Below the pieces are notes generated by a model, which searched no databases, was not told the DNA's origin, and saw nothing but the letters and a program-made list of their open reading frames with translations. From IMG/VR virus record IMGVR_UViG_2531839449_000026: a stretch of DNA of 6,139 bases. One strand, 5' to 3'. This DNA is from a virus (lineage: Duplodnaviria > Heunggongvirae > Uroviricota > Caudoviricetes). Positions within the stretch are counted from its first letter, which is position 1. Each line of letters starts with the position of its first letter. Below are positions 1 to 6,139 of the stretch, in pieces. The position numbers and the translations under genes were made by a program.

Positions 1-209
1 TACGCCGCTATACCATGATGATTTATCTCATACCCTTTGAACGTTACCATCTGGCGCGTAATCTCAACTTCGTTCAGGAATCCGCCATCGCATAACTGCC
101 TGGCTATTTTCGATTTGGTCTGGATTATTGGTAGTGCCTGTTCTTTCAAAGCGTATGATATTTGCGCATCCCATGCCTTTTCGAGAATGGCTAATTGTTT
201 TTTATTCAT
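1..209 (-). CDS. Hypothetical protein, partial (first 69 codons; continues past window start). Begins MNKKQLAILEKAWDAQISYALKEQ
   Basis: Own translation of minus strand: ATG at 209..207 shares one base with the helicase TGA (TGATG), no stop before position 1. AAGGAGG lies 6 nt upstream inside the helicase 3' end. Not in ORF track because it has no stop in the window. Function not recognised. Confidence 0.5.
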   Translation of the reverse strand, partial: MNKKQLAILEKAWDAQISYALKEQALPIIQTKSKIARQLCDGGFLNEVEITRQMVTFKGYEINHHGIAA

Positions 210-1645
210 CAGAATCCTCCTTTCTTCTTGGACTGCGGTTCCTCGCGTTCACGTCGGCGCATTTCAGCAGACTGTTGGTCTGTGTCATAAATAGCGCCAT
301 TTGCCTGAATGCAATACACCGTGCCGGTATTGCCATGACGATTGAGACGAAGGATTAGTTCGGTTTCACCATGTGGAACACTGTCATCAAAAGCACCTTC
401 ACGATGGATCCCCACCCAATAATCGCAATCCTGTTCAATCTGCCCTGTATCTCGTGAGTCACTTGGTAATGGGCGTTTATTGGTTCGGCTTTCCAGTGCG
501 CGGTTAAGTTGCGTCAGAAGCACAACAACGCAATCAAGCTCTTTGGCAAGGTTCTTCAGTCCTTTGGTGATCATGCCGTAAGCAAGGTCGTTGCGATCGG
601 CCTTCTCAGCGGTCATTAGTGTCAGGTAATCGACCAGAATCATGCCAACACATCCTTTTTCTCGCTTGATTCGACGGCTTTCGCTGACGATTTGAGCCAG
701 AGATAATCCCGGCGTGTCGTCGATGTAAAGCATGTCGATTTCACTCAAGCGATTGGCTGTTTCGATCGCCCTGTTGAAGTCACCATCGTAATCACCCTGA
801 TAGCCGTCATCGGCGTCATTTGTCGCCGGAAGGTAAAAAATATTCGGGTTAACACCAGACTTCTGCCCTACCAGTTTTTCCAGTATCTGATCACCTGGCA
901 TTTCAAGGCTGAACATCAGAGCGGGCTTTTTCTCATGCACTGCGCAATTGATTGCCATCTGGCTGTATAGCGTCGTTTTCCCCATCTTAGGGCGAGCGCC
1001 AATGACAAACAGAGAGCCTTTCACCAGACCTTTCGGTGACAGCATCCTGTCCAGCGATGGGATCCCTGTGCTCATTCCCCGTTGTTCGCCTGATGGGTCA
1101 AATCGCTTCTCAAGGTCGCTAACCCAGTCTTCCATGACCTCGCCAAATGAGCGAAGGCCGCGACGCGATCCGGTTTTTGCATGGTCTGTCAGTTGCGTGA
1201 AAATCGCCTGAATAGCTTCGTACTTCTGCGTCGCAGTCATTCCGTTGCGGGAATAGAGCAATTCCGTCGCTTCAGTCATGCGGTTGATGGCGTAGCGTTC
1301 CATTGCGGTTTCGCGAACCTGCATTGCATAGGCAACGATGTTTGCGGCGCTCGGCGTGTTCTTTGCGATCTCAGCGATATAAGCAAAACCGCCAACAGAC
1401 GCCGTTAACGATTTACGCTCCAGTTCATCGAAAAGCGTCAGGCCATCTACTGGCTTTTGCTCCCGGTGCATTCTGGTTATTTCTTCGAAAAGGATTTTGT
1501 GTGGTCGGCTGTAAAATGAATCGGGCTTCAGCATCGCCAGAACTTTCTGGACGCGCTCACTGCTGTCATCATCCAGAAGCAATCCACCAATCTCCGCCTG
1601 CTCTGCCTCGATGCTATGGGGCGGCGCATAAAAATTATCGGTCAT
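209..1645 (-). CDS. DnaB-family replicative DNA helicase (phage P22 gp12-type)
   Basis: Translation has Walker A GARPKMGKTT, FSLEMP, YIDD, ILVDYLTLM, LTQLNR and IEQDCD motifs that align with E. coli DnaB (recalled from memory). The ORF track extends to GTG at 1660; I prefer ATG at 1645..1643 (MTDNFYAPP), which has GAGGGTG 7 nt upstream and overlaps the O-like stop by 11 nt. Confidence 0.85.
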   Translation of the reverse strand: MTDNFYAPPHSIEAEQAEIGGLLLDDDSSERVQKVLAMLKPDSFYSRPHKILFEEITRMHREQKPVDGLTLFDELERKSLTASVGGFAYIAEIAKNTPSAANIVAYAMQVRETAMERYAINRMTEATELLYSRNGMTATQKYEAIQAIFTQLTDHAKTGSRRGLRSFGEVMEDWVSDLEKRFDPSGEQRGMSTGIPSLDRMLSPKGLVKGSLFVIGARPKMGKTTLYSQMAINCAVHEKKPALMFSLEMPGDQILEKLVGQKSGVNPNIFYLPATNDADDGYQGDYDGDFNRAIETANRLSEIDMLYIDDTPGLSLAQIVSESRRIKREKGCVGMILVDYLTLMTAEKADRNDLAYGMITKGLKNLAKELDCVVVLLTQLNRALESRTNKRPLPSDSRDTGQIEQDCDYWVGIHREGAFDDSVPHGETELILRLNRHGNTGTVYCIQANGAIYDTDQQSAEMRRREREEPQSKKKGGF

Positions 1646-2534
1646 CGTGTTCACCCTCACGAACTTTCAGGTAGGTATTGTCGTTAAGCAGGAAATCAAA
1701 TCCCTTTTTGTGCCAGACGGTTCCGCGCTGATGGTTTGGGCGCTCTTCGAACATCCATCGGCAATTTTCGCCTACGTAGCTCAAATAATTTCTCCAGTCC
1801 TGCATCGTGAACCCATGCCCGTCAAGCTGGCGGGTTATCACTCCGGCTTTGCGCCAGAACGTTCGGATCTGGTTTTTACGCTTGTCATTCAGTGCGCGGA
1901 TTTTTGGCGCTTCAGGAAGGATTTCGTGGTAAGCATCGACAACATCCTGACAGCTAACGGAAGGTTTTTTCTTGTCAGACTTTTTGTCTGCTGCGGTACT
2001 CTCTAATACGTCAGTATTAGAGATAATATTATTATATTCTTTATCTGTGGTAATTTGCTGGTAATCTGCCGGTACAGTATTGCTTGCAGGCATTGGTATT
2101 GCTGGCTTTGAGGTGGTAATTTGCTGGTAATCTGCTGGTACAAAATTTGACTGATAATCGTCATATTTCTCTACCGAGAAAACTGAGAATTTACCGTGTG
2201 AAACCCAGTCAATCATGCCGAGTTTTTTGAACTTTCTAAGCAGGTACTGAACGCGATCTGGTTTGAGTCCTGTTTCAAACGCCAGAGAGTTTCTACCGCC
2301 AAGTAGCTTCCCTCTGCCTACCAGAATTTCTCCTGCGTCAGTCATTACATACTCAGGCGTATGCTTTGCTTTGAGGATTAAGTGAACCCACAGATGCGCA
2401 GCTTCTGCGTCCTTGTAAAACGGCACATCCATAATTTTACGGTGCAGCAAGGCATACCCCTTACCGCTGCTTTGATGCGGTTGTTGTAGCCTTCTGGCCT
2501 CTCTGGCTTCGGCTAGATTAGATATGTTACTCAT
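1635..2534 (-). CDS. Replication initiation protein, lambda O-like / P22 gp18-like, with origin iterons inside the coding sequence
   Basis: 299-aa ORF immediately upstream of and overlapping the helicase. Its linker region (residues 131-164) is encoded by tandem DNA repeats next to an AT-rich tract, as in the lambda O/ori arrangement. Family assignment rests on synteny (cII - O - helicase) and architecture, not on a search. Confidence 0.75.
2005..2142. other. Putative phage origin of replication: AT-rich tract (about 2005..2046) plus two 30-bp direct repeats (2047..2076, 2113..2142), each made of two 11-bp-phased GGTAATnTGCnGGTA iterons
   Basis: Seen directly: gtggtaatttgctggtaatctgccggtaca at 2047..2076 and gtggtaatttgctggtaatctgctggtaca at 2113..2142 (one mismatch), with a degenerate ggtattgctgg at 2095..2105. 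The flanking stretch agataatattattatattctttatc is AT-rich. In the O-gene transcription direction the iterons precede the AT-rich tract, as in lambda ori. Confidence 0.6.
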
Positions 2535-2707: not shown

Positions 2708-2986
2708 TCAGGCCTCGAAGAATTCGCCGTTCTTCGGGGCTTTTTCTTTTGTCAGCATTCTGGCTACTTTCTTAGCCAGTTCCGCCAACTCCTCGTCTTC
2801 AACACCCCATTCAAGAACAGCCAGAAGCATTCCCATTTTTGGGATGAAGCTGTCTTTCCATCGCGAAATTTGCGATTCATTAATTCCTAACGCGTCAGCA
2901 ACCTTTCGCTGGCCACGTACAGCAATTCGGTTCAGGATGTTGCTTGTAATTGCATTCGCTTTCTTGCGAGTACTTGTAAGTTGCAT
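2708..2986 (-). CDS. cII: CII-family transcriptional activator
   Basis: 92-aa product aligns with lambda CII as recalled, including the SQISRWK and [10 protein letters not shown] blocks. The 38 bp upstream (2987..3024) match my recollection of the lambda cII translation-initiation region (CATTCAATCAATTGTTATCTAAGGAAATACTTACATATG). Confidence 0.9.
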
Positions 2987-2996
2987 ATGTAAGTAT
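2964..2996 (+). promoter_or_regulatory. pRE-like CII-dependent promoter remnant: TTGC-N6-TTGT at 2964..2977, candidate -10 aagtat at 2991..2996, pointing toward the IS
   Basis: On the strand opposite cII, the tetramer repeat sits at the same distance from the cII ATG as TTGC-N6-TTGC does in lambda pRE (recalled: TTGCGTTTGTTTGCACGAACCAT before the ATG; here TTGCGAGTACTTGTAAGTTGCAT). Its normal target, cI, is missing. Confidence 0.5.
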
Positions 2997-3078
2997 TTCC
3001 TTAGATAACAATTGATTGAATGTATGAACCGCCCCGGAAATCCTGGAGACTAAACTCCCTGAGAAAGAGGTAAACAGG

Positions 3079-3405
3079 ATGACTAAAAATACTCGTTTTT
3101 CCCCCGAAGTCCGTCAGCGGGCGATTCGTATGGTTCTGGAAAGTCAGGATGAATATGACTCACAGTGGGCGGCAATTTGTTCCATTGCCCCAAAGATTGG
3201 CTGTACGCCGGAGACTCTGCGTGTCTGGGTTCGCCAGCATGAGCGGGATACCGGGGGCGGTGATGGTGGGCTCACCAGCGCTGAACGTCAGCGTCTGAAA
3301 GAGCTGGAACGTGAAAATCGTGAACTGCGCCGCAGTAACGATATCCTTCGCCAGGCTTCCGCTTATTTTGCGAAGGCGGAGTTCGACCGCCTCTGGAAAA
3401 AATGA
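3079..3405 (+). CDS. IS629-like transposase OrfA (helix-turn-helix / leucine-zipper subunit)
   Basis: 108-aa ORF with GAGG 8 nt upstream of the ATG. Ends in a leucine-zipper-like [29 protein letters not shown] typical of IS3-family OrfA. Overlaps orfB in the -1 frame. Confidence 0.9.
3397..3402 (+). other. Probable -1 programmed ribosomal frameshift site (AAAAAA run at the orfA/orfB overlap)
   Basis: Six A residues sit just before the orfA TGA (3403..3405), with orfB open in the -1 frame from 3402. IS3-family elements make an OrfAB fusion by slippage on A-rich heptamers (established); the exact heptamer here is inferred. Confidence 0.45.
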
Positions 3406-3914
3406 TGCCACTGCTGGATAAGCTGCGTGAGCAGTACGGGGTCGGACCGGTATGCAGCGAACTGCATATTGCCCCGTCAACGTATTACCATTGTCAGCAA
3501 CAGCGACATCATCCGGATAAACGCAGTGCCCGTGCGCAGCACGACGACTGGCTGAAGAGAGAGATACAGCGCGTATACGATGAAAATCATCAGGTGTACG
3601 GTGTGCGTAAAGTCTGGCGTCAGTTGTTACGGGAAGGAATCAGGGTGGCCAGATGTACAGTGGCACGTCTCATGGCGGTTATGGGACTTGCCGGTGTTCT
3701 CCGGGGTAAAAAGGTCCGTACGACCATCAGCCGGAAAGCCGTTGCCGCAGGCGACCGCGTAAACCGTCAGTTCGTGGCAGAACGACCTGACCAGCTGTGG
3801 GTGGCTGATTTTACTTACGTCAGCACATGGCAGGGCTTCGTCTATGTGGCGTTTATCATTGATGTGTTTGCCGGATACATCGTGGGGTGGCGGGTCTCAT
3901 CGTCTATGGAAACG
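3402..3914 (+). pseudogene. IS629-like transposase OrfB, 3'-truncated (only the first Asp of the DDE triad region is retained)
   Basis: Translation contains DQLWVADFTYV and then leaves the transposase sequence after SSSMET; the ORF ends at 3953 in non-IS sequence (PGRCLRQSRMAQ*). The downstream HHSDKGSQY-type and Glu-bearing regions expected in an intact IS3-family OrfB are missing. Confidence 0.8.
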
Positions 3915-3915
3915 C

Positions 3916-4485
3916 CTGGACGATGTTTGCGGCAAAGCAGGATGGCGCAATGAATACCGCGATATTCCCAACAACGGCGGCGTTGAATGCGGAATATCAA
4001 TAAAGATTGATTCCGAATGGGTAACCAAATGGGATGCTGCTGAAAACACGCAGGTAGAAGCCGTCAAAGGTGGTCGTTCAGGTGCAATGAAGCGTGCTGC
4101 CGTTCAGTGGGGAATCGGTCGGTATCTGTATAACCTTGAGGAAGGTTTCGCACAAACATCTCTCGATAAAAAGCAGGGGTGGCACAGGGCAAAACTGAAG
4201 GATGGAACAGGATTTTACTGGCTCCCTCCATCACTTCCGGGATGGGCAATCCCAGCATCAGATAACAAACCATCACCAGAAAATACCAACCAGAAATCTC
4301 CATCGGTTGACTGCGAACAAATCCTGAAAGACTTCAGCGATTATGCAGCGACAGAAACTGACAAGAAAAAACTCATCGAGCGTTATCAGCGTGACTGGCA
4401 ATTAATGGCTGGCAACGAGGAGGCGCAGGCTAAATGCGTTCAGGTGATGAACATCAGAGTTAACGAACTAAAACAGGAGGCATAA
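3916..4485 (+). pseudogene. Rad52-like (Sak-type) single-strand annealing protein gene, 5'-truncated at the IS junction
   Basis: The frame stays open from the junction to TAA at 4483..4485 and encodes ...GAMKRAAVQWGIGRYLYNLEEGF, which resembles the conserved Rad52/Sak motif (from memory). There is no in-frame ATG with an RBS near the junction. ssb starts right after it (TAAATG), as in phage recombination modules. The only available start is ATG 3844, inside IS sequence. Confidence 0.5.
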
Positions 4486-4998
4486 ATGGGACGTGGAGTT
4501 AATCGCGTAATCATTATCGGTAGATTAGGCCAAGATCCTGAGGTGCGCTATTCACCATCAGGAACGGCATTTGCAAACCTTACAGTTGCTACGTCAGAGC
4601 AATGGCGTGATAAGAAAACTGGAGAGCAAAAGGAGCAGACGGAGTGGCACCGCGTGGTAATGAGCGGAAAACTGGCAGAAATTGCCAGCGAATATCTGCG
4701 AAAAGGCTCTGAGGTTTATCTTGAAGGTAAATTGCGGACAAGAAAATGGCAGGATCAAAGCGGACAGGATAGGTTCACTACAGAAGTTATCGTGGGCGTT
4801 GGTGGAGCCATGCAAATGCTTGGTGGCAAGCAAGGAAGCAATGAACAGTCTTCACCTCAGCGAAATAACGGCCAGCAACAAAGACAGCAATCTCAGCAGC
4901 ATGGGAATTACGGCGAACCACCTATGAACTTCGACGATGAAATCCCCTTTGCACCAGTAACTCTCCCCTTCCCTCGTCACGCTATTCACGCAATTTAA
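4486..4998 (+). CDS. ssb: Single-stranded DNA-binding protein (phage SSB)
   Basis: AGGAGG 5 nt upstream of the ATG. N-terminal OB-fold signature ([22 protein letters not shown]...WHRVV), Gly/Gln-rich linker, and an acidic tip FDDEIPF. Here the tip is followed by 15 further codons ([15 protein letters not shown]) before the stop. Confidence 0.9.
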
Positions 4999-5011
4999 TC
5001 AGGAGAAAATC

Positions 5012-5305
5012 ATGCCAGCGCCTCAGTATGGTGCGGATGACCCGCGCCGCTGTTCCGGCAATTCCGTATCGGAGGTGCTGGATAAATTCAGAAAAAACTA
5101 CGCCCGGATAATGTCGCTACCGCAGGAAACGAAAGAGGAAAAGGAATTTCGCCACTGTATATGGCTTGCAGAGAAAGAAGAGCGCGAGCGAATTTACCAG
5201 ACATCAATCCGACCATTCCGCAAAGCCACATATACCCACTTCCCTGAAATTGACCCGCGCCTGCGTAATTACCGCTCACGCTATGGCGCTATCAGTAATG
5301 ACTGA
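5012..5305 (+). CDS. Hypothetical protein, 97 aa
   Basis: AGGAG 6 nt upstream of the ATG at 5012; tightly packed after ssb in the same operon direction. No recognisable family. Confidence 0.6.
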
Positions 5306-5315
5306 GGAATTTACC

Positions 5316-5483
5316 ATGAGAGGACTTGCATACAATCCCGGCATTCTTCCGGCAGAAATGATTATTCGCCAACGCGTAAAGACAATGCCATCGAGAGAGG
5401 AATTGCTTAAGAGAAATTCTTTTCCGTCAGTGAATCAAAACAAATATCTGAATGCGATGTGGCGTAAAGGAGGCAAGCAGTGA
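5316..5483 (+). CDS. Hypothetical small protein, 55 aa ([55 protein letters not shown])
   Basis: Internal start of the track ORF 5166..5483, chosen because GAGG lies 7 nt upstream of ATG 5316 and the longer form would overlap the previous gene out of frame. Its stop overlaps the next gene's GTG start (GTGA). Confidence 0.45.
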
Positions 5484-5793
5484 GCGAAATTAATTATCAG
5501 GCACTGCGTGAAAAGGCAGAGAAAGCAACTAAAGGAAGCTACATCGTAGGGCATACATCTGTTAACCAGCACGGCAATTTAACAGGAGTTTTTGTTTGCC
5601 AAAAATGGAAAGGAGAACCCGGTGGTGTGATTGCGGAATGTCATGTTAACTGCCTGGTTGAAACAGATGTTCAGGCTTATGCAAACGCTGAATTTATTGC
5701 TGCCTTTAATCCAAATGTTGCGCTGGCGCTTCTGGATGAACGGGAAAGAAACCAGCAATACATCAAACGCCGCGACCAGGAGAACGAGGATAT
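5480..5793 (+). pseudogene. Ead/Ea22-like phage early protein gene, interrupted by IS insertion at 5794
   Basis: GTG start with AAGGAGG upstream. The N-terminus [19 protein letters not shown] matches my recollection of Ead/Ea22-like proteins from enterobacterial prophages. After ...QENEDIE the frame runs into the IS inverted repeat ([14 protein letters not shown], stop at 5840..5842). Confidence 0.55.
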
Positions 5794-6139
5794 TGAACCG
5801 CCCCGGAAATCCTGGAGACTAAACTCCCTGAGAAAGAGGTAAACAGGATGACTAAAAATACTCGTTTTTCCCCCGAAGTCCGTCAGCGGGCGATTCGTAT
5901 GGTTCTGGAAAGTCAGGATGAATATGACTCACAGTGGGCGGCAATTTGTTCCATTGCCCCAAAGATTGGCTGTACGCCGGAGACTCTGCGTGTCTGGGTT
6001 CGCCAGCATGAGCGGGATACCGGGGGCGGTGATGGTGGGCTCACCAGCGCTGAACGTCAGCGTCTGAAAGAGCTGGAACGTGAAAATCGTGAACTGCGCC
6101 GCAGTAACGATATCCTTCGCCAGGCTTCCGCTTATTTTG
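5794..6139 (+). mobile_element. Second IS629/IS1203-like copy, left end (continues past window end), same orientation as the first
   Basis: 346 bp identical to 3025..3370, beginning TGAACCGCCCCGG. Confidence 0.85.
5848..6139 (+). CDS. IS629-like transposase OrfA, partial (3' end beyond window)
   Basis: Same sequence as orfA at 3079; the ATG at 5848 is 54 nt from the IS end, as in copy 1. Confidence 0.85.

Follow-up and report, generated by a model that had tools for sequence, protein, structure and literature searches.

The free C-terminal phenylalanine of bacterial single-stranded DNA (ssDNA)-binding proteins (SSBs) is the paradigm for the recruitment of more than 12 replication, repair and recombination proteins to ssDNA. 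When E. coli SSB is extended by one C-terminal Gly, no binding is detectable to the chi subunit (PMC3045619) or to the DnaG primase (PMC3632105), and the variant can replace wild-type SSB only when growth is slow, since the Phe with its carboxylate does not fit the pocket any more (PMC3045619, PMC3632105); similar pockets are also present on ExoI, RecQ and RecO (PMC3632105). Here we describe an SSB in which the canonical tip is followed by 15 further residues, encoded in a 6,139-nt stretch of viral DNA (IMG/VR record IMGVR_UViG_2531839449_000026; the whole stretch is hereafter called the window). The window is a defective lambdoid prophage of the CP-1639 type, and the ssb gene in its recombination (Rec) module is intact. 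Within the scheme of lambdoid Rec modules given in a 2025 survey, the window SSB corresponds to the "SSB-1" type (PMC12315714). The gene also occupies the SSB-1 position, with a Rad52_Rad22 remnant upstream and an Anti-RecBCD_p2 gene downstream, and the same layout of annealing gene, ssb and anti-RecBCD gene is found in Sf6, HK75, ES18, epsilon34 and mEpX2.

The gene and its parts are as follows (positions in the window).

4486..4998, plus strand: ssb gene, 170 codons plus TAA, coding for a bacterial-type SSB (open reading frame (ORF), PF00436, match to 1EQQ, identity to CP-1639 and O111 sequences)
4498..4797, plus strand: OB-fold ssDNA-binding domain, residues 5-104 (PF00436; AlphaFold2 (AF2) pLDDT ~93)
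4798..4917, plus strand: disordered linker rich in Gln, Gly and Asn, residues 105-144 (sequence, AF2)
4918..4950, plus strand: canonical SSB tip region, 11 residues, 145-155 (near-invariant across tailed SSBs)
4950..4951, plus strand: tip/tail boundary between F155 and A156, a mosaic breakpoint and the site of HNH genes in Sf6- and ES18-type phages, empty in the window
4951..4995, plus strand: post-tip tail, 15 residues, 156-170, which makes the tip internal
4996..4998, 5001..5005 and 5012..5014, plus strand: TAA stop codon of ssb, AGGAG ribosome-binding site and ATG of abc2, respectively

The window SSB matches Pfam PF00436 over residues 5-104 (E=3.5e-38) and the E. coli SSB structure 1EQQ (E=6.8e-62), and scores 178.7 bits against TIGR00621 (cutoff 53.95); from the 60-70% identity of its OB domain to that of E. 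coli SSB, we infer that it acts as an ssDNA-binding homotetramer. The DDEIPF motif comprises residues 150-155 (bases 4933..4950, gac gat gaa atc ccc ttt) and is followed, within a single ORF, by 15 in-frame codons (4951..4995) and the TAA at 4996..4998, all exactly where an earlier note on this DNA, made from the sequence alone, had placed them. The premise of that note, that cellular SSBs end at the tip, also holds: among 80 species-representative genome loci, nearly all of them the host's chromosomal ssb, 74 end at IPF (IPW in L021). The window SSB lacks this terminal-tip feature, that is, a free Phe carboxylate at the C-terminal end, with 15 residues coming after its Phe. All curated SSB models, including TIGR00621, stop at residue 155 of 170, and the tail lies outside the existing family definitions, beyond the SSB as well as the HNH profiles. 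Sequence searches of the PDB with the whole protein and with the tip-plus-tail peptide returned nothing resembling the tail. Structure predictions were made with AF2 for the monomer, using alignments of 61 and 138 sequences, so that inter-subunit and partner contacts are invisible to them. The mean pLDDT of the linker blocks falls from 92 (residues 101-110) to 58 (111-120) and ~31-34 (121-140), with all of residues 116-145 below 50; under the 138-sequence alignment the OB fold reaches ~93, and the tip and tail stay at 44-48 without secondary structure. The tail is not docked on the OB fold in the monomer models, at low confidence, and the prediction for it is disorder.

A gapless profile of 138 tailed proteins gives the tail consensus x-[PG]-hydrophobic-[GT]-[LY]-x-[FVI]-x-R-x-A-[IL]-[YH]-A-[IL]-(S), 15-16 residues long and directly following the tip PPMDFDD[DE]IPF. 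The tip in this profile is almost invariant (F, P and F in 138/138 proteins) and the tail always begins right after the Phe. The conserved tail positions are +4 (G/T), +5 (L/Y), +7 (F/V/I), +9 (R), +11 (A), +12 (I/L), +13 (Y/H), +14 (A) and +15 (I/L); the window tail agrees with every one of them, the amino-acid substitutions seen across the profile are conservative, and about half of the tails carry an extra terminal Ser. The tail peptide encoded at L136 is identical to that of the window and the two coding sequences differ by 7 synonymous (third-position) and 0 non-synonymous changes (P=1.2e-4), and the tails of two integrative and conjugative element (ICE)-type loci, L029 and L056, differ by 9 synonymous and 2 non-synonymous changes (P=1e-4). 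Given that the differences between distant tail copies are nearly all synonymous, the peptide is under selection, and this pattern of codon change shows a tail that is translated and under purifying selection as a peptide. A run of 15 codons after a lost stop is not improbable from its length alone; the conservation of the tail exceeds chance. We therefore regard it as practically certain that the tail is a genuine, selected feature of the family, and extended SSBs of the tailed type should not be "corrected" as frameshifts in annotation. The PVTLPF segment of the tail was considered as a beta-clamp-binding motif by comparison with QLSLPL, and this idea was dropped given that ICE-type tails (GHGYGV) do not fit it.

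The tail is widespread. Among the 120 best SSB clusters from a collection of 5.8 billion proteins, 116 carry a post-tip tail, with variants that include a Klebsiella form and SPVGLQYGKHRVYAL. The viral loci comprise 54 of 80 with a tail and 25 of 80 with a terminal tip. The gene before the tailed ssb in Klebsiella prophages codes for a Sak4-like AAA_24 ATPase and not for a Rad52-like protein. The scan of genome contigs returned mostly host chromosomal ssb genes and served only as a control; apart from the loci ending at the tip, it yielded 2 without a call and 4 that are extended, with the tails IGFGYDCSRVAIHAL, two forms of the type LGHGYG[VI][SC]RKAIYAIS, and ARLGMQWRGGELII. At three of these four extended loci the neighbour is a DUF3577 gene, joined in L056 by a nearby gene for a type IA topoisomerase, surroundings that are typical of ICEs; neither an annealing-protein gene nor abc2 is present at these loci. 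A search with one ICE-type SSB retrieved 119 clusters, of which 99 have an alignable tail of 15-16 residues, and with these 99 included, phage-type and ICE-type tails form one continuum. Tailed SSBs are also encoded on 41 plasmids, 32 of them conjugative. Tailed SSBs of mobile elements are a large subgroup, amounting to hundreds of SSB clusters from prophages, ICEs and conjugative plasmids, that was previously undescribed: open-access papers and preprints, queried with the motif string and for extended SSB tips, contained no description of the tail.

Several observations accompany this survey. A tailed ssb lies beside or near a type IA topoisomerase gene on plasmid NC_019343 (L171, 4545-7437) and in L056 (25-1578); Topo III is a known partner of the SSB tip in E. 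coli. Immediately upstream of the tailed ssb genes of ICE type, the DUF3577 genes (L006, 254-724; L029, 2256-2918; L056, 2162-2698) code for proteins whose last residues are ...AENSF or ...DYDPNSF; this acidic, Phe-terminated stretch is reminiscent of an SSB tip. Unrelated post-tip extensions also occur among SSB representatives (APVPFY, SNYELRSVI, FPAFNPG, NYGEHDPR and a 24-residue hydrophobic stretch); the proteins with such other extensions are P0141, P0145, P0149, P0192, P0199, P0248 and P0266, some of which may be prediction errors. Among representatives at 50% identity, 11 of the 78 recognisable tips are extended, a rough figure given that the library is rich in frameshifted and chimeric predictions.

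The boundary between tip and tail is a site of gene insertion. The isolated phages HK75, epsilon34 and mEpX2 (L002, L004 and L005) encode SSBs with a tail identical to that of the window, and at the DNA level the comparison with the window gives only 66% identity for the SSB body, 76-79% for the tip, 48/48 for the tail and 91-97% for abc2. These values put a sharp mosaic breakpoint exactly between F155 and A156, and the start of the tail is a recurrent recombination joint. In epsilon34 and mEpX2 a gene for an Rv2179c-like 3'-5' exonuclease is inserted directly after the stop codon of the tail. The SSB of Sf6 ends in ...NFDDSDIPF and a stop, and the 159-codon HNH endonuclease gene 26 starts at once; gene 26 itself ends in the tail, with the same stop and the same abc2 ribosome-binding site as in the window. 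At Sf6-type loci the HNH ORF continues in frame across the SSB tail and terminates at the former ssb stop, and in 21 of the 25 terminal-tip viral loci (among the 80 surveyed) an HNH ORF carries the tail. In ES18 a different endonuclease, of the Pfam HNH_3 family (L003, 2941-3462), directly follows the SSB Phe codon and the tail is absent. It is the HNH endonuclease gene next to the Phe codon that makes the SSBs of Sf6 and ES18 end at IPF. The Sf6 record carries the remark that gene 26 has "14 contiguous amino acids identical to E. coli SSB", which fits a 14-residue tail string, so that the tail was noticed in 2004 and left uninterpreted. The HNH genes concerned are the following.

L001 (Sf6), 2918-3397: HNH gene 3' of ssb
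L166, 2501-2968: HNH gene 3' of ssb
L169, 2501-2974: HNH gene 3' of ssb
21 viral loci among L111-L141: HNH genes 3' of ssb

The HNH genes of this family belong to PHROG 2340, are related to I-KsaII and are always located directly 3' of ssb. HNH relatives from 532 phage records, the intron endonuclease I-KsaII among them, can be aligned no further than about residue 134-143 of 159, those at 75-86% identity end in ...KPIYPE/D followed by unrelated residues, and the PHROG endonuclease profile ends at residue 143. The tail is therefore not native to the HNH endonuclease and, given its distribution and the selection on it, is ancestral to the tailed SSBs. In a Cronobacter prophage the same type of HNH gene, with its own C-terminus, comes after an unrelated SSB body that also ends in DDSDIPF and a stop, which suggests that the HNH cassette may bring its own recoded tip codons and stop; the family looks like a homing cassette that would target the tip-coding sequence of ssb. 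In L166, an HNH_3 gene (1560-2027) is located between the Rad52-like gene and ssb. The recombination module appears to be a hotspot of homing-endonuclease genes; in the 2025 survey of lambdoid Rec modules, by contrast, these nucleases are treated as probable functional members of the module (PMC12315714). The window has no HNH ORF (~155-160 codons) after the Phe codon: the tail adjoins the tip without a gap, and 14 bases separate the ssb stop from the start of abc2; the window therefore represents an unoccupied site. From these comparisons we conclude that the tailed allele is the ancestral, unoccupied state and that homing-type endonuclease genes have repeatedly occupied the tip/tail boundary; upon an HNH insertion, the SSB gains a terminal Phe and the tail passes to the endonuclease.

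Two arguments on the history of this boundary were abandoned or downgraded. The "gacgaggaa" of Sf6 gene 26 had been taken as a remnant of FDDE tip codons that excluded an origin by deletion, and was withdrawn once ...KPIYP[DE]E proved native to HNH relatives. The two tail-fused HNH lineages (~47% identical) had been counted as independent insertions; their last ~35 residues are nearly identical, so they probably have a common recombined 3' segment and are weak evidence only. Chimeric predicted proteins (P0400, P0403, P0413, P0442, P0449 and P0452) combine either the N-terminal part of an SSB with the C-terminal part and tail of an HNH protein, or an N-terminal HNH fragment with the Rv2179c-like exonuclease, and point to frequent deletions and rearrangements between the ssb, HNH and exonuclease genes.

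Three explanations would deny the tail a function as part of the SSB. The earlier note had allowed for a sequencing or frameshift artefact in a gene that in truth stops directly after the Phe codon, pointing to a TAA in another frame close to the tip. Such a TAA does exist (4958..4960, frame +1), but no single-base indel restores a terminal Phe because this stop comes two residues after it: deletion of one base within 4951-4957 yields IPF and two residues before the stop (for example, HQ). Furthermore, several complete E. coli genomes (O111) of independent origin and the Sanger-era record of prophage CP-1639 match the 535 bases at 4486..5020 with 100% identity, and at least 80% of this query is present in 319 of 5426 complete E. 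coli genomes. The extension also recurs in related prophages and phages, conserved with synonymous variation over many taxa, an outcome that the earlier note had itself named as a refutation; this leaves the artefact a negligible probability. Alternatively, the tail could be a neutral scar, native to the Sf6-type HNH protein and left when deletion of the gene fused ssb to its last 15 codons, the fusion then spreading by recombination. The tail does end the HNH ORF at Sf6-type loci, the junction of ...YPDE and [A/E]PVTLPF taken alone is compatible with deletion, and the mosaic ancestry of the tail goes with the abc2 side rather than with the SSB body; but HNH relatives elsewhere lack the tail and close ones end differently, diverged SSBs of ICEs and plasmids have tails that match in length and pattern with no HNH gene in the vicinity, and the mostly synonymous change indicates a peptide selected in the SSB frame, so that this origin appears highly improbable. 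Conservation could also reside in the DNA, as a homing target, a recombination boundary or a translational signal for abc2, the peptide being incidental. The identity of all 48 tail bases above an SSB body at 66%, the breakpoints at both ends of the tail and the HNH genes at its 5' edge are in line with this possibility, which we nevertheless consider very unlikely given that L136 retains the peptide despite 7 silent changes, ICE tails hold the amino-acid pattern with very different DNA, the gene following the tail in epsilon34 and mEpX2 is not abc2, and scans of 4800..5150 for promoters, terminators and RNA folds found none, with folding worse than in shuffled controls.

The remaining alternatives grant the peptide a function of another kind. 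The main rival is a C-terminal degradation or processing signal that would limit the SSB level or be clipped to expose the tip. C-terminal tags of the ClpX type include ...RRKKAI of MuA and ...YALAA of ssrA, which the basic residue and A-[IL]-[YH]-A-[IL] of the tail recall. Conservation within the tail is indeed strongest over its seven final positions, R-x-A-[IL]-[YH]-A-[IL], at the very end of the protein. Disorder is predicted for the tail, the tip has stayed conserved, as it should if exposure comes later, and phages, ICEs and plasmids would all meet a host protease. Against this, the extra Ser on about half of the tails alters the terminal residue, and the N-terminal half ([PG]-hydrophobic-[GT]-[LY]) is conserved as well, which a simple tag would not need; on this evidence a degradation signal seems unlikely. 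A docking motif for a partner from the same element, namely the annealing protein or Abc2, would agree with the position of ssb between the two genes, with the mosaic ancestry that the tail shares with abc2 and with the precedent of the HK620 SSB, the last six residues of which are needed to stimulate Sak4 (PMC5928155). This possibility is, in our estimation, quite unlikely given that Sf6 and ES18 keep the same annealing protein and Abc2 and yet have a tail-less SSB, and that tailed SSBs are encoded beside Rad52-like or Sak4-like (AAA_24) annealing proteins, with or without Abc2, as well as in ICEs and conjugative plasmids with neither. Given these unrelated annealing proteins and elements, we consider a host protein or the SSB itself a likelier reader of the tail than an element-specific partner.

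The mechanism that we favor is one of blocking and retargeting. Given that a single extra Gly abolishes the binding of chi and DnaG, the tail most likely blocks pocket-type host interactions, and with 15 residues it should do so more completely than the single Gly; the part of the earlier note that proposed a masking of the tip is supported by these data, whereas its suggestion of an artefact fell with the identical independent assemblies. The tail would turn the alpha-carboxylate of the Phe into a peptide bond and fill the space beside the Phe, so that the tip would be kept out of the hydrophobic pocket and basic rim on the host partners chi, DnaG, ExoI, RecQ and RecO. The SSB of the mobile element could then coat the element's own ssDNA without recruiting or titrating the host SSB interactome, and its conserved tail would present another short linear motif, bound by a partner that phages, ICEs and plasmids have in common. 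This mechanism is put forward tentatively, as a serious possibility that falls somewhat short of an even chance. As a whole, the data are best explained, with modest assurance, by an SSB of a CP-1639-type prophage that belongs to the tailed subgroup and carries a selected tail that blocks and retargets.

A number of points weigh against this reading. No experiment on any tailed SSB was found in the open-access literature, and according to the 2025 survey the lambdoid SSB-1 proteins have not been studied experimentally (PMC12315714). The near-invariance of the tip in tailed SSBs is hard to square with its simple inactivation, so that the tip still has a role and must still do something, be it binding to the OB fold, binding to partners that tolerate an internal tip or exposure by processing. 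Sf6 and ES18 are viable with tail-less SSBs; the tail is therefore modulatory rather than essential for phage growth. The tail DNA is identical at 48/48 positions among E. coli and Salmonella phages, and for part of this uniformity the cause may be a recent recombination or gene-conversion event and not selection. Finally, the SSB+Gly data were obtained with E. coli SSB and cover just two partners, and the AF2 run on a monomer is blind to contacts between subunits or with partners.

A broader and more speculative proposal, which we consider rather unlikely, is that of a "stealth" SSB common to the mobile elements of Enterobacterales (lambdoid and P22-like phages, ICEs and conjugative plasmids), the tail of which would hide the tip from chi, DnaG, ExoI, RecQ, RecO and PriA. 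Under this proposal, ssDNA would be protected without engaging host nucleases and helicases, RecFOR-dependent RecA loading or the SOS response, the tail would be read by a common host factor or a tip-unmasking protease, and the HNH genes at the boundary would act as on/off toggles. More generally, that SSBs of mobile elements keep the tip but bury it under a selected tail suggests that phages, ICEs and plasmids deliberately alter the recruitment code. This bears on how mobile elements protect ssDNA intermediates, avoid or exploit host repair and the SOS response, and meet defences that sense phage SSBs, and is relevant to recombineering tools that pair annealing proteins with SSBs; natural controls are ready-made in the form of the same SSB with and without the tail, as set by insertion of the HNH gene. 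The interest of the system would be higher if a masking or retargeting function is confirmed.

The other features of the window place ssb among prophage genes (cII, O-like, DnaB-like, Rad52-like, abc2 and ead), that is, at a mobile-element location and not at the chromosomal ssb locus.

209..1660, minus strand: DnaB-like helicase gene
1635..2534, minus strand: O-like initiator gene
2708..2986, minus strand: cII, accompanied by a DUF2740 gene, also on the minus strand
3025..3909 (right end approximate), plus strand: truncated insertion sequence (IS) of the IS3 family (HTH_Tnp_1, HTH_21 and partial rve domains)
3910..4485 (left boundary approximate), plus strand: 3' part of the gene for a Rad52-like single-strand annealing protein, 5'-truncated by the IS (Pfam PF04098; comparison with the full-length product of Sf6 gene 28)
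5012..5305, plus strand: abc2 (anti-RecBCD protein 2), the next gene of the module (Pfam PF11043, E=4.7e-62, full length)
5480..5842: ead/Ea22-like gene ORF (Ead_Ea22 domain)
5794..6139, plus strand: the IS element of 3025..3909 in a second copy, which interrupts the ead/Ea22-like gene (direct repeat D1)

The first IS copy (from 3025) is broken off inside the integrase domain and stands where the immunity region should be; the Rad52-like gene has lost its 5' end to it. The two copies (3025-3909 and 5794-6139) have at least 300 bases in common at 100% identity, a 300-nt block being repeated at 5794..6093. Because of these insertions at 3025 and 5794, the ssb-abc2 pair is bracketed by IS copies and the native pL promoter is lost. 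The O-like initiator gene contains two 35-base direct repeats (2047-2081 and 2113-2147; 91% identical, 66 bases apart) that look like origin iterons.

Among known systems, the chromosomal SSB of E. coli (1EQQ / 4MZ9) shares with the window SSB the OB fold, the disordered linker and the tip PPM[DN]FDD[DE]IPF; the E. coli protein ends at the Phe, whereas the window SSB runs on for 15 conserved residues. In the engineered E. coli SSB+Gly (Naue et al., PMC3045619, PMC3632105), the tip is likewise made internal by a C-terminal extension, but that extension is artificial and one residue long, and the protein is impaired in vivo, whereas the window-type extension is natural, 15-16 residues long, conserved and widespread. 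The SSB-1 proteins of Sf6 (gene 27) and ES18 (gene 48) belong to the same family and occupy the same position between the annealing gene and abc2, and the body of the Sf6 SSB is ~97% identical to that of the window at the DNA level; these two proteins end at IPF, unlike the window SSB, and the tail ends the endonuclease in Sf6 and is absent in ES18. In its available part, the 2025 survey of lambdoid Rec modules makes no mention of the SSB-1 tail (PMC12315714). The SSB of HK620 (HkaK, "SSB-2"), which works with Sak4, is likewise a recombination-module SSB whose C-terminal residues mediate a specific partner interaction (PMC5928155), but it is of a different sequence type (PMC12315714), and its NDYPPF motif is terminal and not masked. 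SsbB of the gonococcal genetic island comes from a gene cluster of ICE type that also contains DUF3577 and topoisomerase genes (PMC3334931), a setting similar to that of the tailed SSBs of ICEs; in contrast to the tailed proteins, it is described with a short acidic C-terminus and no post-tip tail is reported (PMC3334931).

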